NCBI GenBank assembly: GCA_963785235.1
Contig: CAWAUM010000011.1
Span: 233,724-297,723 of the forward strand
Length of the DNA stretch: 64,000 bases
Reading direction: 5' to 3'
Source of the DNA: an uncultured delta proteobacterium
GTDB lineage: Bacteria; Desulfobacterota; Desulfomonilia; UBA1062
Numbering within the stretch: the stretch's first letter is position 1; each line of letters begins with the position of its first letter. A model generated the notes under the pieces. It worked only from the letters and a program-made list of their open reading frames with translations. It was not told the DNA's origin and ran no database searches. A program made the translations under genes and the position numbers. Shown here one piece after another: positions 41,823 through 60,292 of this stretch.

Positions 41823-43437
41823 CTACTGGGCCAGGATAATCGGTTCAAGCAGGATAACCAGCTCTGCGGTCTCAACGCTTTTTATCTGCTGGCTGAAGAG
41901 GTATCCAATACCGGGGATACTGCCCAGTATGGGTATACTCGTATTTTCCTGTTTCAGATTCTTGCTGATAAGCCCACCTAAGGCAATAATGTTTCCGCTT
42001 TTAACACGGATCTGGGTGGTGGCCTCTTCAAGCTGCACTGTGGGCAGCGTATAGACATTACCGCTGATGTCGCGTTCTTCAAGCTTCACTATCCGGCTCT
42101 TGATGGGGGTGATGCTCAGGTTTATCGAACCGGTATCCAGGTCGATATTGGGCACGACACCCAGCATGATGCCATCGAAGATAGAACCCACGGTCACCTC
42201 TGGTGTAGTGATTGTCGGGCCACCTTCTGTGGAAGTGGTTGTGAGCTTGATCTCCTGGATATATGAGGTGTTCGTGCCCACACTGATCAGCGCCGGCTGT
42301 CCGTTGGTCACCCTTATCCGGGGATTCGAGAGGACCTTTATGTCTCCGAATTCCTGCAGGGCGTTCATGGCTGCATTAAAGCCGTGAACGTCCGATTGTG
42401 CCTGGATCACCAGGGCAGGGGTGAGGTTAGTCGTTGAGAGCGCAAGGTTCTGCTGGATCGGATTGAAGACGATATCATTGATACTGAGGTGGGTGCTGGT
42501 CCAATCGATGCCGTACTGGCTTTTATCCTTCAGCGCGACCTCAATGATCTTTGCCGTGATGAGGATCTGTGAATTATAATAGGCCTTGATGGTCTTGATG
42601 TAGGCATCGATACGATCTATGGCGTCTCTCCTGTCATTTACCTCAAGGAAACCCAAGGCCCTGTTGAGGGAATACGACCCATCGCGGGTCAGGGTTGACT
42701 TCACATGATCCTCGATCTGTGTGCAGATGTCGCTGGTTGCTACAGGGATGGTGTCCTTGATGGAAAATTCACCGCTCAGGCCGTTATCACTTGATCCGCC
42801 ACTTGATCCGCCACCTGAGCCGCCACTTGAGGAGCCCGAAGAAGAACTGCTTGTAGAGCTGCTGATAACATCTCCTCCCACAGACATGGTGGTCTGTTTC
42901 TGGGAAGACAGGAAATTAAGGTGATAGGTTCTTGAGTCAGTACCCTTTACAGACAGTGCGCGTCCGTCCACCTTATAGAAAATGTGCAGTGCAGATGCTA
43001 CGTTCTCCAGGGCCTCTTCCAGTGGCGTCCTGTTAAATGCAATGGATACGGGCGGTAGAATAATGGGACCTTTGGCTGTTTGTTTATCTTTGGCCGCATC
43101 AGCTGTTTCTTCGGATAGATCGGTGCCGGTGCCCGCCTTAAGGCGTGAGTCAACCACCAGGTCCAGTCCCGCCCTTTCCGCAACGGCTGCAAATACATCG
43201 GTGAAAGCGGCATTGCTTGCGTTAAGGGTTATGGTCTTGCCTTTCAATGGATTCAGCTTGGCCACCTTTGCTTTGGGCAAAAGACTCTAAAGGTTTTGCC
43301 GCCTCAAGAGGTGTTGCAGCTTCCTTTTCTTTTTCAATGGAGAAATCCTCTTTCTTCATCAATTTGTCTGTGGTGCATCCGGAAAGGAAGACGCAACAGA
43401 TAACCGTGAGTAGTGAATACCTAATAAACTTTAACAT
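41823..43437 (-). CDS. Secretin, MshL-like lipoprotein secretin of a type IV filament system (frame interrupted near 43275)
   Basis: C-terminal secretin domain (GNIIALGGLISKN..IPILGSIPGIGYLFS..ELVILLEPIIL). N0/N1-like region (RTYHLNFL). The upstream fragment 43222-43437 encodes MLKFIRYSLLTVICCVFLSG-C (lipobox) and runs into the secretin frame after a 1-nt shift. Confidence 0.8.
42788..42835. repeat. Four tandem 12-nt units inside the secretin gene encoding a Ser/Gly-rich linker
   Basis: cacttgatccgc, cacttgatccgc, cacctgagccgc, cacttgaggagc (42788-42835). On the reverse strand these encode part of SSTSSSSSGSSSGGSGGGSSGGSSD. Confidence 0.8.
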
Positions 43438-45773: not shown

Positions 45774-46442
45774 TTAAGGGAGTAATCCATGGAGATACGT
45801 GAGGCTCACAGTCTCGAGGATATCATCATAATTTGAGTTTATTAATGCAGAAGGAGAGGCGAATTGGTTATTATCACTGTTCGTGATACGCCCATCTCCG
45901 GTGTCGTCATTGGGAGTGTCTGCCCGCAGGTTTTCTCCCCCGGAAAGAACGACAAAGGCCACCTTCATGTTTCCATTGTCACAGAAGAGATCCGGAGCTG
46001 TTGTTCCATTGATAAGCTGACCGATTGTTGTTTTAAGCGTGGCGGGCGTAGTTGAGGTCAGATGTGATTCAACGGAATAAAAGAGGGTGGTCTGATAAGG
46101 GTCCTTGCCATTGATGCCGAGCGTTACCCAGGGCAGATAGCCATTTAGTCTGTTAGTAGTTTCAGCCCCATTGATGTTAGCGCTGGCAAACGGCAACCTT
46201 CCTGTGGCCAGGGCATACCCGATGATGGCGGTCCTGACTTCTTTGACAAACATCCGGTCATCCTTCAACTTGTTCTGCTTGATCAGCATGGGGAGGAGTT
46301 GTGCGCCAAGTCCCACAAGGATGCCGACTATCACGAGCACAAAGGCCATCTCGATGAGGGTAAACCCCTTTCGTGAAAAAGGCTTGCTCAGGCAGCAGCC
46401 TCTCCTTGTCATAAGGTCATTGTTCACCCTAGCCACCCCCAA
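45774..46442 (-). CDS. Prepilin-type (pseudo)pilin
   Basis: Class III signal KG/FTLIEMAFVLVIVGILVG with Glu at +5. The likely true start is the ATG at 46412 (MTRRGCCLSKPFSRKG-FTLIE). Confidence 0.75.
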   Translation of the reverse strand: MGVARVNNDLMTRRGCCLSKPFSRKGFTLIEMAFVLVIVGILVGLGAQLLPMLIKQNKLKDDRMFVKEVRTAIIGYALATGRLPFASANINGAETTNRLNGYLPWVTLGINGKDPYQTTLFYSVESHLTSTTPATLKTTIGQLINGTTAPDLFCDNGNMKVAFVVLSGGENLRADTPNDDTGDGRITNSDNNQFASPSALINSNYDDILETVSLTYLHGLLP

Positions 46443-47643
46443 GCTTGGACATGAGGTCGTAAACCGGACCGATAAGGGAAATGACGATGAAGACGAAGAT
46501 GCCGCCCGTTATGACTATGGCAATGGGCTCAATCATCTTGCCCAAGATGTCTACAAAACGCGATGTCTTCAATTCGTAGGTATCTGCAAGATATTTCAGC
46601 CTCTGATCCAGGGTACCGGTCTTCTCGCCCACGCTGACCATCTTCAACGTGATGGCATCAAAGAATTTCGTTACAGTGAAGGCCGTCAGCAACGAATTGC
46701 CCATGTTGGTTTCATTACGTATACGTATGATGACCGAGCGGATGAGGTCGTTGTGAAAGACCTTTTCAAGGATATCAAGCGCTTTTGTAAGTGTCACGCC
46801 GGACTGAAGCATGAGGGACATATTCGAGAATACCAGGGTAAGGGTTGAGCATTTCAGCAGATCGCCCACCACGGGAAGACTGAAGGCAACACGGCTCAGC
46901 ATCAATCGTGTTCTAGGAATTTTTCCCAGAATGACAAACCCTATGGTAATCAATCCGAGTGCAATGGGGTATAGCAACCAGTTATCTTTGGAGAATTGGA
47001 CGAAATTGACAAGGCTCAACGTGATATTGGGGAGCTGGACATTGATCTCCTTGAAGGTTGAAACAAGGCGGGGCAGCACGAAAAAGAGCCAGAAGATGAT
47101 GACGCACAGCATGGCAGCCACCACGAAGCCCGGATAGATCAGCGCCCTCTTCACCTGGGAAACAATACTGTCCACCTTTTTTAAATAATTCGCGGTATTG
47201 TCCAGGGCTGTTTGAATGGTACCGGTCTCTTCTCCGATATGGCAGAAAAATATGAGCATCTCGGGAAACACCTCGGGCCGGCGTGAAAATGCCCCTGATA
47301 AAGACTCTCCCTGGGCAATGCCCCCGATGACCTCATCGATTGCATCTCGCAGGCGTTTTACCCTGATGGTTTCCTTGATGCTTTCCATGGATTCCAGTAG
47401 GGGCAGGCCGCTGCCGAGCATGGAGGCAAGGGATTCACAGAATTCCGCTATCTCGATCTTCTTAACTGCCGGCTGGGTAAGGGTCTTGATGGTTTCAATT
47501 ATCTGATACCTCTGTTCGCTGTAACGGATAAGCGTCATTTCCTGAGAGGAAAGGTTCTCCATCAGATCCCGGATGCCCTCGAAATCGCCCTTGGAGGCAA
47601 AGATTGTTCCGTCTTTCTTCAGGGCATTGTACGAAAGGATCAT
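46429..47643 (-). CDS. Type IV filament platform protein (GspF/PilC/MshG family)
   Basis: 404 aa with two T2SSF repeats and three TM segments. ATGA-type overlap with the ATPase gene. Confidence 0.85.
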   Translation of the reverse strand: MILSYNALKKDGTIFASKGDFEGIRDLMENLSSQEMTLIRYSEQRYQIIETIKTLTQPAVKKIEIAEFCESLASMLGSGLPLLESMESIKETIRVKRLRDAIDEVIGGIAQGESLSGAFSRRPEVFPEMLIFFCHIGEETGTIQTALDNTANYLKKVDSIVSQVKRALIYPGFVVAAMLCVIIFWLFFVLPRLVSTFKEINVQLPNITLSLVNFVQFSKDNWLLYPIALGLITIGFVILGKIPRTRLMLSRVAFSLPVVGDLLKCSTLTLVFSNMSLMLQSGVTLTKALDILEKVFHNDLIRSVIIRIRNETNMGNSLLTAFTVTKFFDAITLKMVSVGEKTGTLDQRLKYLADTYELKTSRFVDILGKMIEPIAIVITGGIFVFIVISLIGPVYDLMSKLGGG

Positions 47644-49277
47644 TACCGCAAAACCCTCCAGATCTCTGCGAAGCTTGTCGTACCGTTAAGTATCTTGCGG
47701 ATGCCGTCACCCCGGAGCGTTACCATGCCTTCTTCCACAGCCTTGTCTTTGATCTCGAAGGGGTGTGACCCCACAGAGATGAGGCGCTCGATCTCTTTGG
47801 ATATAACCAGGATTTCCGCCACCATGATCCGGCCCAGGTAGCCGGTCTTTATGCACCTGGGGCATCCTACCGGGGCATACAGGGTTGTCCCTTTCTGGAT
47901 GCCGAATACACGGTGCTCTTCGTCGCCTGAATCATATGGCTGCTTGCAGCTCGGACAGAGTGCCCGGACGAGCCGCTGCGCTATGACGCAGATGAGTGAT
48001 GATGATATCATATAGTCCCTCATGCCAAGGTCTTTGAGCCTGGGTACGGCTCCGGAGGCATCGTTGGCATGCACCGTGGAAAGGACAAGGTGCCCTGTCT
48101 GCGCAGCGCGGAGCGCCATGGTCGCCGTATCGCCGTCCCGTATCTCACCGATAAGGATGACATCAGGGTCCTGCCGTAAAAAGGCCCTGACCGCGCTTGA
48201 GAAGATATACCCGGACTTCTCGTTAACCTGGGTCTGGCGGATCAGCGGGAACTGGTACTCAATGGGGTCTTCAACGGTCACGATATTTTTTTCAATGGAG
48301 CTGATCTCCCGCAAGGCCGCATATAAGGTTGTAGTTTTTCCTGACCCTGTGGGGCCGGAGACTAAGACCATGCCGTAGGGCTTGTGCAGAAGATCCCTGA
48401 GCTGGGTAATATCATCAGGATCCAGGCCAAGGCTCCGGATGTTATACAACTCCTCCGAGGAAGCCAGGATGCGCATGACCATGTTTTCCCCATTGGTAAC
48501 CTTTAAGGTAGAGACACGGATGTCATAGTGCTCATTTAAAAAATCAAAGGAGAGCCTTCCATCCTGGGGTTTGCGCTGTTCCGAGATGTCCATCTCGGCC
48601 TTTACCTTGATGCTGGAGATAACCCTGGAGTGCACCTCGATGGGAAAGGAGTAAAACGGGTAGAGTATGCCGTCGATGCGGTAGTGGATCTGTGTTGTCT
48701 TGTTCGTGGGGGTTACGTGGATGTCCGTTGCACGGGAGTTGATGGCGGACATGATCAGCAGCCTCACCAGTTTTTCTGTATCCACGTCGTGCGGATTATA
48801 CTTGGAATGTTCGAGCTGCTGCTCGATCTCTTCTTCTATGGGGTGTTCCAGGAGGTAATAGTCTTTTTCAATGTGCTTCTGTATCTGCGATGGCGATGCA
48901 GCCACAAACCGGATGCGTTTTTTCGAGATGCGTGAGGCAAGGTCTGACAGTTTCGTATTATCCGGTTCGCTCGTGGCTATGGTCAAGGTAGTGTCCTCGA
49001 CACTTATGGGAAGCAGGGAGTTCTCGCGTGCAAATTGCACGGGTAAAGCAGAGAGCGCTTCTTTCTGTGGTGAGAAATGACGCAGCTCTACAAACTCGAT
49101 GCTGAACTGTTTTGCAATGGACTGGGCAAGTTCCGTCTGGGTGACAAGGCCAAGACGGATCAGGATATCGCCGACCCGTTCCTTGGTGGCACGCTGTTCT
49201 ATAAGGGCAAGGCCGATTTCCTTATCGCTGATGATCCCTTCATCTTTGAGAAGATCACCAATGCGTTTTTTCTCCAT
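47643..49277 (-). CDS. Type IV filament extension ATPase (GspE/PilB/MshE family) with N-terminal MshEN c-di-GMP-binding domain
   Basis: 544 aa. Walker A GPTGSGKTTT, Asp box DPDVILIGEIRD, His box TGHLVLSTVHAND, and a tetra-Cys CPSC...CPRC motif. N-terminal tandem 24-residue RxGxx(L/I)...Q motifs separated by 5 residues. Confidence 0.9.
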   Translation of the reverse strand: MEKKRIGDLLKDEGIISDKEIGLALIEQRATKERVGDILIRLGLVTQTELAQSIAKQFSIEFVELRHFSPQKEALSALPVQFARENSLLPISVEDTTLTIATSEPDNTKLSDLASRISKKRIRFVAASPSQIQKHIEKDYYLLEHPIEEEIEQQLEHSKYNPHDVDTEKLVRLLIMSAINSRATDIHVTPTNKTTQIHYRIDGILYPFYSFPIEVHSRVISSIKVKAEMDISEQRKPQDGRLSFDFLNEHYDIRVSTLKVTNGENMVMRILASSEELYNIRSLGLDPDDITQLRDLLHKPYGMVLVSGPTGSGKTTTLYAALREISSIEKNIVTVEDPIEYQFPLIRQTQVNEKSGYIFSSAVRAFLRQDPDVILIGEIRDGDTATMALRAAQTGHLVLSTVHANDASGAVPRLKDLGMRDYMISSSLICVIAQRLVRALCPSCKQPYDSGDEEHRVFGIQKGTTLYAPVGCPRCIKTGYLGRIMVAEILVISKEIERLISVGSHPFEIKDKAVEEGMVTLRGDGIRKILNGTTSFAEIWRVLR

Positions 49278-49466
49278 AAGACCCGTTCCCGCTCCTTAAG
49301 CAGTGCAAATTGAGAAATCACTCAAAGATATGTCCCTGCAAGAATCTCCTGTTGGAGAGTAGCCTTTCGGGTTTGTCTTCCACCTTCCTATCACGAGTGG
49401 GTGCATGATGTGTCATGCCCCAAACAACGCACGTGTGGGCCGGAAGACACCATCCTCGTGATACGG

Positions 49467-50060
49467 CTACATTCTCCAGTAGACAGTCTTAACCGTTGTT
49501 GCCGTATAAACAGTGTTGGCCCTCATGGTCCCTGTGTTGTAAACCGCGTCATCATATTTTCTGTCCATTTCCTGGGCAACCTCATAGGGGATCTGGGTGT
49601 ACACGATACAGTTCGCGTTCAGCGGTGTTGCAGACCCTGGGGGAGTAGCCAAATACTGGATGTAGGCCTGGCCTCCAAAGGGGTTTGTAGGGTAATCGTT
49701 AGCCGCTCCGGTATAGCCCCCGTTGATGATCTGTGCCAAGACGAGGTCCTGGAAGAGAACAGAGCGCTCGGTATTCGCATTGATCTGGCCGTTTCCTGCA
49801 GTCGCAGCAGGATCTGTATGGCCCTGTGTCGGGATATTAGCTACAGGTGCATCACCCGGATAATAGTTATACCTGTCATAATAGGTATAGAAGGCCGCGG
49901 TGAGTGAATCCTTCTGGTTGACTAACTTCTTGACCTTTGCATTCTGAATGAGGGCCTCGCCCTTGAGTACGCCTGTAATGAGCAAGCCGATGATCACCAA
50001 CACCAGTGCAAGTTCAACAAGGGTAAAGCCGCCTTTTTGTCGATTTCTAAACCGTTCCAT
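49467..50060 (-). CDS. Prepilin-type major pilin candidate
   Basis: 197 aa. MERFRNRQKG/FTLVELALVLVIIGLLITG (short leader, Glu+5). It is its own transcription-unit-like gene, followed by a long hairpin and a 189-nt gap before the ATPase gene. Confidence 0.8.
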   Translation of the reverse strand: MERFRNRQKGGFTLVELALVLVIIGLLITGVLKGEALIQNAKVKKLVNQKDSLTAAFYTYYDRYNYYPGDAPVANIPTQGHTDPAATAGNGQINANTERSVLFQDLVLAQIINGGYTGAANDYPTNPFGGQAYIQYLATPPGSATPLNANCIVYTQIPYEVAQEMDRKYDDAVYNTGTMRANTVYTATTVKTVYWRM

Positions 50061-50180: not shown

Positions 50181-52331
50181 TTATTCTTTATGCGTAATGA
50201 TTCGTCTCCCAAGTGTCAGGGGGGATATGCCCGGTATAGTGGAGATGTCCTTGTTATATACAGCTCCTGTTGAAGATATGAATTTCATGACACCATTGTC
50301 CAGATCAATGGAAGGACCAAAAGCGCTGCCCATAAACATGGCCTCTGACTTTGTTTGCCTTCCAGTGAGGGAATCATACTCTTGAAACATGGATATGCCG
50401 GTGTCAATACCTCCGCAGGGAGAATCTTCTTTCCAGGTGCTTAAGAATAACCTGTTATCCATGATTGTCATGCCTGAGGGTGAGCCTCCTTCAAGGGAGA
50501 CAGACCAAACGATATTCTCTTTGGTATAGCATTCAAGGCGTTTATTACTTGCCACGATGAGGTGAAGCTCCTTTCGCCAATGGAACGGACGTATCTCCAT
50601 AATGGGATTATTGGCGGTGGTGTTTATGATGCCCAAGAGTTCGAGCCTGTTGTTAAAAAGATAGACAAGTCCGTCGGATGTCCCTGCAAAAACCCCAGCT
50701 GTGCACGGATCATAGCGCACGACATTAATGGTATGATTAACTTCGAATTGAGCCGTCCCTATGCCGTTTCCAAGATTGTACGCATATATCGTGGAGCCGT
50801 TACTGATATAGGCCATGGATTCGGATGCGTCGATAAAAGACCCTTTATGCTGCCAGATTATCTGAGGTCCCTGGCCTATACACGAAATGATGCCCAGTCT
50901 GTTCGGGCCTGTTATGACCCGTTCGCCTCTCAGTCGCACCTCGCCCCCTATACCTGTCATGAGCCACGTCAGGCTGCCTTCGGGCATGGTGACATTGAGG
51001 AGCTGATCGCGGGATGTAGTGCAGTACAGGTCTGTCTGTGTGGCTGCAAGGTCATGGGCAAGGCCATTCAGGGAATAACCCGGGCAGGATACCAGGCTTA
51101 AAGGACTGACGACACTCGGTCTGTAAAACCGGCATTTGTCGGTTTTGAGCCATGGCGGATCGAGCCGTGCACGGAGGTTTTTCAGTATCATGTCCTGGTC
51201 GTTACGAACCACTATAGGCTGGGTAACCAGCATCTGTTCAGGAACGAGTATCTCCCGTGCCGGCATATACTGACCCCCGCCCTTTATAGCAACACTTCTC
51301 AGATACGCCGTATCAGGGCCGATAATGTGGACATTGATGCCCAGAGACTTCGCATAGGATGAGACATCATCAAGGCAGTGAGAGCCTTCCCCTTCAAAGG
51401 CAGCATCTTTGGCGTTTCCATCATGATCAAAGTCCTTCAGCCAGGAGGGGAGATGGCCGTCGTTTATGGGAACACCTGCAGTAACCAGAATGATATGTTT
51501 GCCGGATACACACTGCGAAGGGAACAGGGTTGTTGCATTATAAAGTGCCTCCGATAAAGGGGCTGAGCCCGATGCCGGATGAACGCCGTCAAGGCCCTGA
51601 AGGATCTGCTGCCATTCAATGGTAAAAGTTTGGATCAGGCCTTGTGACGTGCTCATAAGGGACACTTCACACAGATCCAGTGATTCAAAGAGCGACTTTG
51701 CGTAGGAGAAGGACTTTGTCCACACTGACATTGCACCTGTCAGGCTGCCGAGTGCCGGGGCCCTTTGATATGAGTTGCCCCAGCTTCCCTTGAAATAGGT
51801 GCCCTCAGCGTTCGTGTAGGTGTCTTCAAACTCACAGATATCACTGATGTGGGTTATGCCGCCTGTGGCCCATTTTGAGTAGAGCGCATCGTCTAAGAAA
51901 TCTTGGCCGGATGATGTAATCGTGCTTAATGAATCATCGATGATAATTATGATATGTGGTCTCTGGGCAATCCGGGTGGTGCCTTGTGGGATATCCGCAC
52001 TCTGTTCCCTTAGTGCCACACACCAGGAATATGACTGCATGGCGCTGGTTGCATGTTCGGTGAGCCTGGTGGAAAAACATATATGGTCCCACCCTTCAGG
52101 CGCCACAAGCAGTTTATGGGTTGCGGATGGCATAGTCCCGTTTTGGGGAGCAAAGAGCTGATCTTTAATAATACGATAGAAGGCGTTGCTCGATTTCATA
52201 TGGTACAAGGTTATGGAAGCGGACGCCATGGTAAGCCCCAGGATCACGGTAAGGAGTAGGAGTACAAAGGCAAGGATAAAACCTTGCTCATTGGATGGGG
52301 GATGATAAAGAGAGTTCCTTCTCTGTTCCAT
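50181..52331 (-). CDS. PilY1-like candidate tip adhesin: PilX_N-type anchor + vWA domain + beta-propeller
   Basis: 716 aa. N-terminus EQGFILAFVLLLLTVILGL (PilX_N-like hydrophobic helix). vWA beta-1 with DxSxS (HIIIIIDDSLS), HIILVTAG, INVHIIGP. The C-terminal roughly 300 aa holds PQQ-like propeller repeats (STIYAYNLGNG, GLVYLFNN). Confidence 0.6.
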   Translation of the reverse strand: MEQRRNSLYHPPSNEQGFILAFVLLLLTVILGLTMASASITLYHMKSSNAFYRIIKDQLFAPQNGTMPSATHKLLVAPEGWDHICFSTRLTEHATSAMQSYSWCVALREQSADIPQGTTRIAQRPHIIIIIDDSLSTITSSGQDFLDDALYSKWATGGITHISDICEFEDTYTNAEGTYFKGSWGNSYQRAPALGSLTGAMSVWTKSFSYAKSLFESLDLCEVSLMSTSQGLIQTFTIEWQQILQGLDGVHPASGSAPLSEALYNATTLFPSQCVSGKHIILVTAGVPINDGHLPSWLKDFDHDGNAKDAAFEGEGSHCLDDVSSYAKSLGINVHIIGPDTAYLRSVAIKGGGQYMPAREILVPEQMLVTQPIVVRNDQDMILKNLRARLDPPWLKTDKCRFYRPSVVSPLSLVSCPGYSLNGLAHDLAATQTDLYCTTSRDQLLNVTMPEGSLTWLMTGIGGEVRLRGERVITGPNRLGIISCIGQGPQIIWQHKGSFIDASESMAYISNGSTIYAYNLGNGIGTAQFEVNHTINVVRYDPCTAGVFAGTSDGLVYLFNNRLELLGIINTTANNPIMEIRPFHWRKELHLIVASNKRLECYTKENIVWSVSLEGGSPSGMTIMDNRLFLSTWKEDSPCGGIDTGISMFQEYDSLTGRQTKSEAMFMGSAFGPSIDLDNGVMKFISSTGAVYNKDISTIPGISPLTLGRRIITHKE

Positions 52332-52980
52332 GGTATCTTGACCTCATGCGAATTGTCAGATCATTGCCTGAAATCGTTGGATGAAAGAGGACTACTGCCT
52401 CTGCAAGCAGTTGGTTGTTCCGGTAGAGGCCGTCTCCCTTCAGTTCATAGTGGATAGCCGGGACCGCCCTGTTGCCTTGTACAGGCATTATGGCGCATGT
52501 CAGAGGGAGGGTTTTTTTATCCAGGCCCCGTGAATAGTTGTGGCCTACAACACAGGGGCCGTTCTCGGTTATTATTCCAAGGTCGGCCCAGAAGTCTGCG
52601 CGGCCGTCATTGTCGATATCTACGGTATCGAGTATTGCAACCCTTTCAGCTGAGGAATTGATGAGTGCATAGTAAGGTGCCGGATTGGTCAAGGATATGC
52701 TGATACCGGGATTTTCAGATGTGACAGGCACCCCTGCAATAAAAAGCTGGCTGCCTTCAATCGCAATCTTAAGGTCCTGCGGGAGCAATAATGCACACTG
52801 AACGAGATCTGCATTCAGCTGGATAGAGGCCTGGCGGAGCGACTGCATGCAATACCATGCCTCTCTCATTTCTTTATGCGTAACAGCCGAAACCTGGTAG
52901 AATTGATAGAGAGCGAGAAAAAGTATTGATGAGCATGCAAGCGCTATAAGCAACTCCACCATGCCCACACCTCTTTCCAT
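52288..52980 (-). CDS. Minor pilin, PilW-like prepilin-type protein
   Basis: 230 aa. MERG/VGMVELLIALACSSILFLAL (Glu+5). First gene of the cluster, overlapping the next gene by 44 nt. Confidence 0.65.
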   Translation of the reverse strand: MERGVGMVELLIALACSSILFLALYQFYQVSAVTHKEMREAWYCMQSLRQASIQLNADLVQCALLLPQDLKIAIEGSQLFIAGVPVTSENPGISISLTNPAPYYALINSSAERVAILDTVDIDNDGRADFWADLGIITENGPCVVGHNYSRGLDKKTLPLTCAIMPVQGNRAVPAIHYELKGDGLYRNNQLLAEAVVLFHPTISGNDLTIRMRSRYHGTEKELSLSSPIQ

Positions 52981-55577: not shown

Positions 55578-56237
55578 ATGTCCAAGGATTATTACCGGAT
55601 TCTGGAAATATCCAAGGATGCAACGTCTTTAGAGATCAAGAAGACCTACCGCAGGCTCGCCCTTCAATATCACCCTGATCGTAACCCCGATAGACCCGGC
55701 CTATAGAGCATTTCAAGGAGATCACCGAGGCATACGGGGTGCTTATCGACCCGGACAAGCGGCGGAAATATGACATGCAGCGTGAGATTCTCCTTCAACC
55801 GGGAGACGGTGTTCGAAGATATCTTATCCAAATCAGAGTTCCGGGACGTCTTCGATGATCTGCCCATACGAAAAGAATGGATTGACCGCATATTGAACGT
55901 GAGCAAGGTCTTTGCCTATGAGGCCTTTGTGGTGGGAGGCACGCCCAGTGCAATCCTGAGGCGGTCCATGGTGCGCCTGGCATCGCAGGGATTGAACAGG
56001 ATGTTCCATGCAGTCATGGACATGCACGAAAAGGTTGCCATCCCTTCAAGCATTGCCGTGCTCGGGGGATACATAACCCTGGAGTACAGGCCGGGCTTTG
56101 TGAAACACAAGATCCGTGTGAAAATACCCAGGAACACGCAGCAAGGCACAATGCTCAGGGTCCTGGGGATGGGCAGGTCAAGCCCGTCAAGAAAGGCAGG
56201 GGACCTCTATTTGCAGGTGGACATCGAATCGTTGTAA
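55578..56237 (+). CDS. J-domain (DnaJ/CbpA-like) protein (two frame interruptions near 55700 and 55790)
   Basis: ATG at 55578. [38 protein letters not shown], then [21 protein letters not shown] in a second frame. The C-terminal fragment (track ORF 55770-56237) ends [10 protein letters not shown], like the DnaJ C-terminal domain. Confidence 0.7.
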
Positions 56238-57151
56238 ATGACGATCTGGTTCTTGCCGTGCGTCTTGCCCCAGTACATGGCCGCATCCGCCATTTTGATG
56301 ACCTCGTGCGGATCGCTGGAATCCTTCGGCAGGCTGGAAAGGCCTATGGTGACGCTGACCTCAAGCGTTGATTCAACCGTGCTGCAGATACGCTCTGACA
56401 CCACCACGGCCTCTTCAATGGAGGTTTCGGGGAAGAGGATAATGAACTCCTCGCCGCCATAACGGGCAAGGATGTCGCAGTTTCTCGTGTTATGCTTGAA
56501 CACATGGGACAGGCGCACGAGCATTTCGTTGCCCTATTCATGCCCTTTGGCGTCGTTGTACTTCTTGAAATCGTCGATATCGATCATGGCCAGAGACATT
56601 GTCCTGTTGTACCGCAGGTGTCTCGAAACCTCGTTCTTGAGTACGCTCATGAGGTGCCGGAAATTGTACATGCCCGTGAGTTCGTCGGTGCGGGAGAGGT
56701 TCCGGTAGTAGTCAGCCAGTTCGGCCTCCTCTTTGAGCCTGACCTCTTCGAGGATCCTTTGGATGGTGAGGTGGAGGTGGTCGAGCAGAATCGGTTTGGT
56801 AATAAAATCCGAGGCGCCGAGCTTCATGCATTCCACTGCATCACGAATGGTGCCGTACCCGGTAATCATGACAGCCTGGATATCGGACCTGATCTTTTTG
56901 ATGGATTTCAATAACTCCGAACCTGTCATGCCCGGCAGGTGAAGATCCACAATGGCTATATGAAAGAGGTCTTTCTGGACGAATGCAATTGCCTGCTCCC
57001 CACTCATGGCGGTTGTTACATCAAAATCGTGCCCTAAAAGATACTCTTCAATAAGATCAAGGGTCTCCTGTTCATCATCCACAATCAGGACCCGAGTTGT
57101 TTTCTTCACAAGCGTGGCACCCATCGTATCAGCCGTTCTCCTTGTCCTCAC
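56207..57151 (-). CDS. Response regulator-diguanylate cyclase (REC-GGDEF) with an in-frame TAG at 56534-56536
   Basis: REC domain (IAIVDLHLPGMTG). GGDEF domain split as ...YNDAKGHE-TAG-GNEMLVRLSHV...RYGGEEFIILF. Both halves are in the same frame (track ORFs 56534-57151 and 56207-56524). Confidence 0.8.
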
Positions 57152-57348: not shown

Positions 57349-58156
57349 ATGCAACAGGCTTGTCTTATCAAGAAGATTGAACAGCATATTGAGAGTATTC
57401 CGACGCTTGAGTCCAGCCGGATGAGGCTCTTTAATGTGCTCCAGGAGGAAGAATCCTCCATAGAGGGTATTGAGCAGGTAATATCCAGTGATCCTGCCCT
57501 TGTAGCCAAAGTGATCAAGCTGGCGAATTCGTCGTTCTACCGTCATGCCGACAGGCATGTGGGAATCCAGCAGGCATTACGCACCATCGGTCTTGACATG
57601 GTGAAATGCATCGCATTGTCCATGGCCGTGATGGAGACCTTCGGCACCCAGACCCCTTCAATGAAGCAGCTCTGGAGGCATTCCTATGCAGTGGCTTATA
57701 TATCAGGACTGCTCGGGAATTCCAAAGCCGAGAAGGAGTGTCTCTTCACCGGGGGGCTTCTCCATGATATCGGCAGGATGATACTGATCTGCAGAGACAC
57801 CTGAACACTATCTTCCCCTTTGCGAATTCACCGGTAGCTGGCCCGATCTGGCATTAGAGCGCGATGTTTTCTCCATGGACCACACAATAATCGGCGAAAT
57901 GATCGCGAAGCGCTGGCATTTTCCGCCGGAAGTCATAGCGCTGATAAGGTATCATCATGAACCAATGAGCCGAGCAACCGCCCTTGTTTATCTGACGGAT
58001 CAGGTCGTCATGCAGCATGAGAGGGGTTTGATCACAGAAGATTTTGAGCAGGAGGTCGGAATCAGAAACCATCTTGGTGATGAGTATAAAGATCTTGTAA
58101 ATACTATTAGACAAAGGTATAGAACGAACACGGTTATATTTGAAAATTTGGGGTAA
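57349..58156 (+). CDS. HDOD-domain signalling protein (frame interrupted near 57800)
   Basis: IESIPTLESSRMRLFNVLQEE..IEQVISSDPALVAKVIKLANSSFY, then GGLLHDIGRM. Continues as EHYLPLCEF..DHTIIGEMIAKRWHFP in a second frame. Confidence 0.75.
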
Positions 58157-58164
58157 GGGGCATT

Positions 58165-60292
58165 GTGTTTGCCGTGAAGGAGCTGCATATTCTACGGGGC
58201 GAATCCACAGAGCTTACCTCGACTCGTGAAGCGATCCTGCTTGATCTCCTCAGCAAGGCCTCTGATTTCTATGAACAAACGGTAGGGGTACTTTCTTCCA
58301 TCTTCGAGATCACCGAATTCGTCTCTAAAGGCTCTCCGGAGAGCGATTTTTTCGCTTATGTAACAGGCGTGCTCATCGAGGAGTCAAGGTGTGAAAACGC
58401 CTCAATCTTCATGGTGGAGAACGGCATGGTAGTACTCAAGGCCGCTTCCGGTATAACAATAAACAATGCCAATCCTCATGTGAGCATGGCACTCGGAGAG
58501 GGTGTTGCCGGAACCTGTGCACAAGATGGAAAGACCATCTTAGTTCATGATGTACAAGACTGTGAATTTTTCAAAAAGATGGATTCCGCCAAGGTAACCA
58601 TTGGTTCCATGCTGTGCGTGCCCATTAAGGAAGGAAACCGGACGCTCGGCGTCATGAACCTGTCCCACTCATGCAAGGGCTTATTTCAATGTCCATTATG
58701 TCCGGGTGTTTGAGCTCATGGGCCTGCTCATCGGCCAGATGCTTACCCTGGTGCAGCTCTATGAAGTCTTCCATCGGAAAAATTCAGATTTGACTGAACT
58801 CTTAAGCGAAAGAGACGAATCTTTACGAAGCGTTACCGAGAGGTATAAGGCGGTTGTCGATATTTCCGAGGAGATGATATTCATTATCGACATGGCAGGC
58901 CGTGTCCTGTTTCTCAACAGGGCCCTGCAGTTACTCCTGACAAGGCCGCCAGTGACCATTTCGGATATCTTCGATGAGAGGTGCGTTTCCTTGATCCTTG
59001 AAACCGTTTCTCAGGCAGATACCGGACATTCCACCGAGTTTGATCTCAATGTGAAGGTGGGAGATAAGGCCGATGTCATCGCTCAGTTCTTTGTCAAGCA
59101 TATCGATACCGACCAGATTCTCGTAATTATGCGTGACATCACTGCCAAGAAGCGCATGGAGCAGAAGACCATGCAGACAGAGAAGCTCACCTCGCTCGGG
59201 CTTCTTACCTCCGGGATAGCCCATGAGCTCAACAACAAGCTCACGCCTATCCTGGGATTTGCCGACCTCATGGACCCGGATCATCTGACCCCTCAGGACA
59301 AAAAGAGGCTTTCCATCATCATCAACTCGGCCTCGGCCGCCAAGGGCATTGTGGAATCCCTGCTCAAGTTTTCCCGGAACAAACCCCCGGAGAAGAACAT
59401 CTTCGACATGCGTGATGTTATCAAGAGGACTATGAACCTCTATAGCCCCATCATCAAGAAGCGCGGTATAGAAATCATCAACGAGGATCCTGAAGAGCCG
59501 CTGTACATTAAGGCAGACATGAATTGCATGGAGCAGGTGCTCGTGAACTTCATCAACAATTCCATCGATGCCATTGATGAGCACCCCGGCACCATCTGGA
59601 TCAGGTCGTTCATCAATGATGAATTTGTAAATGTCACTATTGAGGATACTGGTCCAGGCATTGCTGAAGGCGTCAAGACAAAGATATTTGATCCGTTTTT
59701 CACCACCAAGCCGAAGGACAAGGGAACAGGACTCGGGCTTTCCATATGCTACGGGATCATTTCCGACCACAAGGGCGAGGTGTTCATTGAAAATACAAGC
59801 AATGGCGCCATGGCGACCATGAAGATCCCTGCCATCATGGATATGGACGCCAAAGACAGGGATGCTGTCATAGATGATGAGCCCGCCTGCACGCCCTCTG
59901 ACAGCCGGAAGAGGCAGAGCCTGATCATGGTGGTGGAGGACGAGGCGGATCTCCTTGACCTCATGGTGGACACCTTGAGCCCGCACTACAAGGTCATCAC
60001 CTTCGAGAACGGCAGGAAGGCCTGTGATAACATCGAAGAGTATGCCTGGGAACTCATCATATCCGACCTGAGGATGCCGGTGATGAACGGCATGGAATTC
60101 TACCACGAGGCGATAAAGAAGAACCCGGGTTTAAAAAAGAGGTTCTTGTTCATTACCGGTGATACCTATGACTTCCAGGTTAAGGAATTTCTTGAGACCA
60201 CCGGTGTAACATTCCTGAGGAAGCCTTTCAGGATCAAGGAGTTGAGGGAATCCGTGCACAAGCACCTGCAATTGAGGATGATTAAGGAATGA
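58165..60292 (+). CDS. Hybrid sensor histidine kinase GAF-PAS-HisKA-HATPase-REC (frame interrupted near 58690)
   Basis: GAF domain (GEGVAGTCAQDGKTILVHDV), H-box SGIAHELNNKLTPILGF, N-box NFINNSIDAI, G-boxes EDTGPGI and GTGLGLS. C-terminal REC (LIISDLRMPVMNG). Confidence 0.85.

Follow-up and report, generated by a model that had tools for sequence, protein, structure and literature searches.

The MshEN domain is defined by two copies of the motif RLGxx(L/V/I)(L/V/I)xxG(L/V/I)(L/V/I)xxxxLxxxLxxQ that are separated by five nonconserved residues, so as to form a 53-residue module binding cyclic di-GMP (c-di-GMP), and it has been recognized in >10,000 proteins, deltaproteobacterial ATPases included (PMC5013675). 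In Vibrio cholerae, a single N-terminal MshEN domain is carried by the T2SSE ATPase MshE (5HTL; PMC5013675), whose gene lies in the operon mshHIJKLMNEGF-BACDOPQ. Thermus thermophilus PilF possesses three tandem domains of this type (GSPII-A, -B and -C), and GSPII-B, with K/L at motif position 1, reaches nanomolar affinity aided by a D266-R268 pair (8PDK; PMC11731258). The PilB proteins of Myxococcus xanthus, Geobacter and Chloracidobacterium thermophilum (3JC8, 5TSG and 5ZFR; PMC6957770) likewise join MshEN to T2SSE, as type IVa pilus extension motors in (former) Deltaproteobacteria. The N-domain of Xanthomonas XpsE (2D28) and PilF GSPII-A (9G1W; PMC12002112) share the same two-subdomain fold, but key Gly, Arg or Gln residues are missing from them, or else an extended helix a1 with an N-cap, together with contacts between the subdomains, blocks the site. 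Here we describe a putative c-di-GMP-binding MshEN module at the N terminus of a pilus assembly ATPase encoded in a 64,000-nucleotide stretch of DNA (the window) from an uncultured delta proteobacterium related to sulfate reducers, an anaerobic Desulfomonilia known as a metagenome-assembled genome (MAG; assembly GCA_963785235.1, contig CAWAUM010000011.1, positions 233,724 to 297,723).

The ATPase is 544 residues long, and its residues 5 to 57 contain two 24-residue motifs with a spacer of exactly five residues, RATKE, between them, the arrangement described for V. cholerae MshE. An earlier note on this DNA, made from the sequence alone, had placed tandem MshEN motifs at 49107-49265; this position was correct, since the codon of residue 5 starts at 49265 on the minus strand and that of residue 57 ends at 49107, and the spacing agreed when it was checked against PMC5013675. 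The departures from the consensus had been undercounted. Motif I had been said to differ only at positions 2 and 7, and it has three deviations, Ile at position 2, Lys (K11) at position 7 and Ile at position 17; motif II had been said to match throughout apart from Val at position 2, and a second deviation, Ile for Leu at position 21, was found. All deviations besides K11 exchange one aliphatic residue for another, and the residues at positions 2, 17 and 21 (I6, I21 and L25; V35, L50 and I54) are all aliphatic, with Leu in two of the six, and fall within the relaxed "h" class. Position 1 is Arg in both motifs (R5 and R34), position 3 is Gly in both (G7 and G36), followed each time by Asp as in MshE, and position 24 is Gln in both (Q28 and Q57). 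Among the bundle-core and turn positions, G14, G43, L10, I15-I16, L39-I40 and L44-V45 fit and K11 does not. Neither motif matched the strict consensus expression; under the relaxed search pattern of the original authors, motif II passed and motif I failed because of K11. A loosened pattern that accepts both copies hit these two places and no others when the window was translated in all six frames, and 200 shuffled windows gave no hit; ~3e-13 tandem pairs would be expected. The motif match is thus far beyond chance, and the profile E values given below agree.

Profile searches, alignment to solved structures and structure prediction agreed with the motifs. The Pfam MshEN (T2SSE_N) model, with which the earlier note had proposed to check its claim, did match the protein (PF05157, 67 bits versus a cutoff of 23.1), but over residues 58 to 140 only, so that the model leaves the motif region untouched; according to the supplement of Wang et al. 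2016 (PMC5013675), this model does not include the binding motif. Since the Pfam model omits the c-di-GMP-binding helices, we relied instead on NCBIfam NF053729, on a search of Protein Data Bank (PDB) sequences and on structure prediction. NF053729 ([quoted passage not shown]) aligned over its full length (model positions 1-53/53) to residues 5 to 57, with 47.8 bits versus a cutoff of 38 (E = 9e-13). When the first 161 residues were compared with PDB sequences by phmmer, V. cholerae MshEN (5HTL) was matched at E = 1.2e-15 with no gap in the motif region, and PilF and the Geobacter and Myxococcus PilB proteins were matched as well. A further match of the N-domain, at E = 7e-13, was to the MshEN part of NfrB, a glycosyltransferase activated by c-di-GMP.

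A model of residues 1 to 152, built with AlphaFold2 from a 33-sequence homolog alignment, had a mean predicted local distance difference test score of 93.6 and a predicted template modeling score of 0.84. In it, helices at residues 6-12, 18-31, 35-41 and 47-57 are followed by an alpha/beta subdomain, and residues 1 to 5 are nonhelical; a four-helix bundle (MshEN_N) and an alpha/beta subdomain (MshEN_C) are therefore predicted in the same order as in MshEN. Foldseek placed 5HTL ("MshE with cdg") first among PDB structures, with a template modeling (TM) score of 0.76 to 0.83, a root mean square deviation (rmsd) of 2.3 Å and 32% identity, and the c-di-GMP-bound PilF GSPII-B structures (8PDK) came next. 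The nonbinder PilF GSPII-A (9G1W) was a clearly poorer fit (rmsd of 5.6 Å and TM score of 0.63), and the nonbinder XpsE (2D28) was somewhat poorer than the binders (TM score of 0.71 to 0.74 and rmsd of 3.2 Å). Because only MEKK precedes R5, the N-terminal extension of helix a1 that blocks the site of GSPII-A cannot form here.

The phmmer alignment relates this protein to V. cholerae MshE with an offset of four residues. R5/I6/G7/D8 correspond to R9/L10/G11/D12 of the Vibrio protein, G14 to G18, I21 to L25, L25 to L29 and Q28 to Q32; in the second motif, R34/V35/G36/D37 correspond to R38/L39/G40/D41, G43 to G47, L50 to L54, I54 to L58 and Q57 to Q61; and E104, part of the C-terminal subdomain, corresponds to D108. 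The roles of these residues in MshE have been described (PMC5013675). The two proteins have in common the Arg, Gly, Gln and turn-Gly residues and a basic N terminus, and they differ in that Ile or Val replaces Leu at five positions here, in the Lys at motif I position 7 and in the Glu at D108. Compared with PilF GSPII-B, which shares its fold and binding module, the ATPase has a single domain of this type, Arg at position 1 of both motifs and E104 in place of the Asp of the D266-R268 pair, without the Arg. Geobacter PilB differs in a seven-residue spacer and an Asn at the turn position, as judged from the alignment. Unlike XpsE and GSPII-A, the protein retains all of the key residues, with four residues before motif I.

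The contact positions were conserved among 49 nonredundant homologs, down to ~48% identity, and the pattern was the same in 79 genomic loci. G7, G36, Q28, Q57, L10 and L39 were invariant (49/49), G14 and G43 were each found in 48/49, the R34 position was R or K in 47/49 and the positions of the hydrophobic triads were aliphatic in all 49. Position 1 of motif I varied (R, P, Q, K or L); R, K and P belong to the relaxed class [RKPN] (PMC5013675) and L to the (R/K/L) extension (PMC11731258), and Q belongs to neither. K11 was kept in 41 of the 49, which points to a trait of the clade rather than to decay. Several further residues at "x" or spacer positions were also nearly invariant, namely, E27 and R41 (49/49 each), E33 (48/49) and T31 (46/49). 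Orthologs with 76 to 99% identity occur in many metagenomes, where they are named Desulfomonilia or "Deltaproteobacteria" MAGs, and one ortholog cluster alone was found on >150 contigs; homologs near 50% identity come from Dissulfuribacter, Thermodesulfobacteria and related groups. The ATPase encoded by a contig 98.7% identical to the window (contig L006, in which all of the genes are intact) is the same protein despite 4 nucleotide differences in the gene, indicating purifying selection.

Taken together, the NF053729 match, the gap-free alignment to 5HTL, the predicted fold and the conservation of the contact positions bear out the MshEN-type module that had been proposed for the ATPase N terminus. 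That residues 1 to ~145 form a genuine MshEN (GSPII) domain is close to certain, and binding of c-di-GMP by this domain is, by analogy with the characterized binders, quite likely. Homology with MshE and PilF suggests that a single c-di-GMP monomer would span the four-helix bundle, with one guanine per motif. The guanines would form stacks with R5 and R34, and their Hoogsteen edge (O6/N7) would be recognized through the backbone amides of G7-D8 and G36-D37, to the exclusion of adenine; beneath the bases would lie two hydrophobic triads, I21/L25/V35 and I6/L50/I54, and contacts to ribose and phosphate would come from Q28 and Q57. Published mutants bear on the substitutions seen here. In a PilF construct, Leu-to-Ile exchange at positions 17 and 21 of motif II changed the dissociation constant (KD) 2.4-fold (PMC12002112). 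In MshEN, L29V caused a 4-fold loss and Leu-to-Ala exchanges a 28- to 38-fold loss, and G11L abolished binding; G11L and G40I are grouped as abolishing or strongly reducing it. These values suggest that the aliphatic deviations would cost little affinity, and on account of the Leu-to-Ile/Val substitutions, the KD is probably sub-micromolar to low micromolar. Since the ATPase appears to be the motor of an MSHA (mannose-sensitive hemagglutinin)-like type IV pilus operon, raised c-di-GMP would be expected to favor pilus extension and surface attachment, as for V. cholerae MshE and T. thermophilus PilF. It is likewise by analogy that we propose which ligand is preferred and how, and in which direction, the motor would respond, and gating of pilus assembly by c-di-GMP is, in our estimation, somewhat better than an even proposition.

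The remainder of the ATPase is that of a T2SSE superfamily member. The ATPase domain contains the Walker A sequence GPTGSGKTT (308-316), an Asp box, a His box and a CPSC...CPRC tetracysteine, all found by motif search, and the Walker B-type sequence DVILIGEIRD can be read off the translation. No in-frame start is possible further upstream, the start used being the first start codon after the upstream stop. The protein scored below the cutoffs of both the PilB equivalog TIGR02538 (495.5 bits versus 675.65) and the GspE equivalog TIGR02533 (485.2 bits versus 630.25) and is assignable to neither. At full length it matched solved structures of PilF, PilB and GspE at E values down to 5e-125, with PilF as the best sequence match; the M. 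xanthus, Geobacter and C. thermophilum PilB structures were matched at E = 1e-113 to 1e-116. An identical protein is encoded on ENA contig ERZ25039527:contig_72265, and MAG records label the ATPase merely "GspE/PulE family protein." Two open reading frames (ORFs) antisense to the motif region, 49077-49313 (+) and 49099-49299 (+), were rejected as genes, being without support and opposite a strongly conserved gene.

The ATPase gene lies in a cluster on the minus strand (Table 1) with the order minor pilin, 716-residue protein, prepilin, ATPase, platform protein, 222-residue prepilin-like protein, three further proteins and secretin. The secretin matched the MshL model TIGR02519 better than any other secretin model by a wide margin, at 243 to 245 bits, just below the cutoff of 250.2. 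The 478- and 716-residue proteins had no Pfam, NCBIfam or PDB sequence match. The 716-residue protein (50181-52331, -) shows a hydrophobic segment at the N terminus and contains IIIIIDDSLS, in which DxSxS resembles a metal ion-dependent adhesion site motif; it may act as a tip protein or adhesin similar to PilY1. A strong sigma-70-like promoter match (11/12) at 53125-53098 (-) precedes the first pilin-like gene, and a hairpin resembling a terminator follows the secretin gene at 41734-41722 (-); together they bracket the ~11.4-kb cluster, and both are consensus-level matches only. With V. cholerae, this locus shares the MshL model as the best for its secretin and differs in gene order and content; from the PilB systems, it differs in lacking pilMNOPQ and pilT and in having an MshL-type secretin. 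In distant clusters (contigs L004, 12849-14051, and L005, 12828-13658), a gene for an AAA_16/AAA_22 ATPase follows the platform gene, and in the Dissulfuribacter cluster (L004), a tetratricopeptide repeat (TPR) gene follows the secretin gene. By comparison with the order mshHIJKLMNEGF, the AAA gene is read as MshM-like (MshM/ExeA-like) and the TPR gene as MshN-like, so the lineage looks MSHA-related. The AAA_22 gene is absent from the operon of the clade of the window, where the 222-residue prepilin-like gene occupies its position. We therefore describe the pilus system as MSHA-like and not as a demonstrated MSHA member.

Table 1. Features of the ATPase gene, the pilus operon and the neighboring signaling genes, in window positions
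Feature	Coordinates	Strand	Basis
MshEN-T2SSE assembly ATPase, PilB/GspE family, 544 aa (whole gene)	47643..49277	-	translation, start at 49277
MshEN motif I, residues 5-28, RIGDLLKDEGIISDKEIGLALIEQ; predicted helices a1-a2, predicted half-site for one guanine	49194..49265	-	translation, NF053729, model helices 6-12/18-31
Five-residue spacer RATKE, residues 29-33	49179..49193	-	translation; spacing as in Wang 2016 (PMC5013675); A30/T31/E33 clade-conserved
MshEN motif II, residues 34-57, RVGDILIRLGLVTQTELAQSIAKQ; predicted helices a3-a4, predicted second guanine half-site	49107..49178	-	translation, NF053729, model helices 35-41/47-57
MshEN C-terminal alpha/beta subdomain, residues 58-140; E104 aligned to V. 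cholerae D108	48858..49106	-	Pfam PF05157, 5HTL alignment, model
T2SSE ATPase domain, residues 167-541	47655..48779	-	PF00437, 420 bits
Platform protein, T2SSF/GspF/PilC family, 404 aa; start overlaps ATPase stop	46429..47643	-	profile matches
Prepilin-type protein, 197 aa (candidate major pilin), with leader ...QKGG/FTLVE; just upstream of ATPase	49467..50060	-	N_methyl / TIGR02532
716-aa protein and 230-aa GspJ-like minor pilin, overlapping genes	50181..52980	-	profile searches
222-aa prepilin-like protein (45774-46442) and three proteins of 478, 136 and 149 aa	43421..46442	-	order conserved in all relatives
Secretin, MSHA-type MshL model best; 1-nt insertion at 43271 removes first ~50 codons in the window	41823..43433	-	TIGR02519
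REC-GGDEF response regulator: GGEEF, RxxD I-site RNCD, Asn at PleD-D344 position; in-frame TAG	56207..57151	-	profile and alignment
HDOD/HD protein, split by 1-nt insertion near 57796; intact, 290 aa, in L006	57349..58156	+	
GAF-PAS-HisKA-HATPase-REC hybrid histidine kinase, split by 1-nt insertion at 58680; 708 aa in L006	58165..60292	+	

Three signaling genes lie beyond the pilus operon. The earlier note had pointed to a REC-GGDEF cyclase and an HDOD protein 7 to 9 kb from the motifs as a hint of c-di-GMP control. The distance is right, but the support that they lend is weak: both genes are interrupted in the window, their linkage is specific to the clade, the cyclase family has Asn in place of the Asp that reads guanine and, to our knowledge, HDOD is not a c-di-GMP-metabolizing domain. 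The neighborhood survey drew on 85 loci from a jackhmmer scan, of which 22 close-clade loci had enough flanking sequence and 25 were distant loci that keep the motifs. The REC-GGDEF gene was at the same place in 19/22 close-clade loci, and a GGDEF gene lay within 10 kb in 1/25 distant loci; this contrast suggests clade synteny and not a general functional coupling. Contig L004, too, carries a GGDEF gene, close to the contig end. Scanned with Rfam over its full length, the window gave no c-di-GMP or cyclic GMP-AMP (cGAMP) riboswitch at gathering thresholds.

The REC-GGDEF gene is interrupted by an in-frame TAG at 56534-56536, between GHE and GNEML, and is intact in contig L006 (2160-3077), where it encodes 305 residues. 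At the corresponding codon, L001 has TCG (Ser) and L002 has GAG (Glu). An alternative genetic code for TAG was considered and set aside, a point error or mutation being simpler given TCG and GAG in relatives and 12 indels elsewhere in the window. These 12 single-base indels relative to L006 (10 insertions and 2 deletions, in nonhomopolymer contexts) are located at 43271, 44347, 44487, 54261, 54426, 55554, 55691, 55703, 55783, 57273, 57796 and 58680. They split the genes for the secretin, the 478-residue protein, a TPR protein, DnaJ, the HDOD protein and the hybrid kinase and leave those for the ATPase, platform protein and major pilin untouched; they may reflect either assembly error or real gene decay. 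In the cyclase, Asn occupies the nucleobase-reading position, for which PleD has Asp344 and the Hypr enzyme GacA, a producer of cGAMP, has Ser348 (PMC6456294). This Asn was found in 22/22 syntenic orthologs and, among the best 120 REC-GGDEF homologs, down to 59% identity, in all 116 with a readable motif. A search of a limited collection of papers found none on such an Asn-type GGDEF variant.

Several observations weigh against a c-di-GMP-gated pilus motor. The Lys at position 7 of motif I stands where both the strict and the relaxed published patterns demand a hydrophobic residue, 5 of the 12 key hydrophobic or consensus positions are Ile or Val and not Leu, which is expected to lower affinity somewhat, and Glu (E104) stands at the site of the guanine-contacting Asp of MshE and PilF. 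Consensus motifs are moreover insufficient in PilF GSPII-A, whose site is closed off by contacts between the subdomains and by an N-capped lengthening of helix a1 (PMC12002112), and how binding alters motor output is not settled even in V. cholerae (PMC5013675). Finally, with the ATPase under the PilB and GspE cutoffs and the secretin just under that of MshL, the designation "pilus" rather than "secretion" rests on gene content.

One rival reading is an MshEN fold that has degenerated and no longer binds c-di-GMP, serving instead in structure or protein interaction, for example, in docking to the inner-membrane platform or a partner protein, as in XpsE, X. citri PilB-PilZ or GSPII-A. Folds of this type that do not bind are known and also turned up in the Foldseek search (XpsE, 2D28; X. 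citri PilB-PilZ, 7LKM; and GSPII-A, 9G1W), a perfect motif did not suffice in GSPII-A (PMC12002112) and the Lys of motif I violates the published patterns. However, XpsE has lost key residues (G11V, R38G, G40L, Q61V and others; PMC5013675) and GSPII-A carries H33, S39, A41 and R62 (PMC12002112), whereas the corresponding positions are canonical in this ATPase, with G7, G36, Q28 and Q57 retained throughout the homologs. Its N terminus is also too short for the blocking helix extension, and the model is closer to the ligand-bound binders than to GSPII-A. We consider the loss of binding unlikely on these grounds. A somewhat better case, although still a minority view, can be made for c-di-GMP being bound with an output other than pilus polymerization, such as partner switching, exopolysaccharide or an effect on some pilus functions only. 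An output of this kind has been proposed for PilB of M. xanthus and C. thermophilum; loss of binding by PilF GSPII-B reduced twitching and attachment and left DNA uptake unaffected (PMC11731258); and a nonbinding triple-Leu mutant of MshE was constitutively active (PMC5013675), so the coupling is not simple. Against this, the ATPase gene is flanked, within a single operon, by the genes for the pilin and the platform protein, and the closest characterized system with a lone N-terminal MshEN, V. cholerae MshE, controls pilus production (PMC5013675).

The neighboring cyclase raises the further question of whether the physiological ligand might be another cyclic dinucleotide, such as 3',3'-cGAMP. 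The position at which its Asn is so consistently found sets substrate choice in Hypr GGDEF enzymes (PMC6456294), and V. cholerae MshEN does bind cGAMP, albeit ~660-fold more weakly than c-di-GMP (PMC5013675). Both half-sites of the ATPase nevertheless keep the Gly-Asp backbone that would read guanine O6/N7 and clash with adenine N6, and distant homologs keep the motif yet have no GGDEF linkage; we regard a different ligand as highly improbable. Only slightly less remote, and offered as speculation, is the idea that the pilus operon, the hybrid kinase, the HDOD protein and the Asn-type REC-GGDEF protein constitute a conserved signaling cassette, in which the cyclase would make a product other than or additional to c-di-GMP and K11, E27, R41, T31 and E33 would tune the receptor to that product or to contact with the cyclase. 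On balance, the explanation that we favor as a whole, with measured confidence, is a complete MshEN module that would bind c-di-GMP and thereby favor the motor of an MSHA-like pilus.

The finding is a functional refinement of the label "GspE/PulE family protein," in a module that a curated NCBI model already recognizes. The mechanism is documented in Vibrio, Thermus, Myxococcus and others, and this ATPase adds one more example to them and raises no new question. Potentially new threads are the family of REC-GGDEF proteins with Asn at the specificity position and those residues of the receptor module that are invariant specifically in this clade. If the proposed binding and gating are true, this uncultured and widely detected Desulfomonilia lineage would control pilus-mediated attachment by cyclic dinucleotides, sensed by a receptor that is part of the motor itself.

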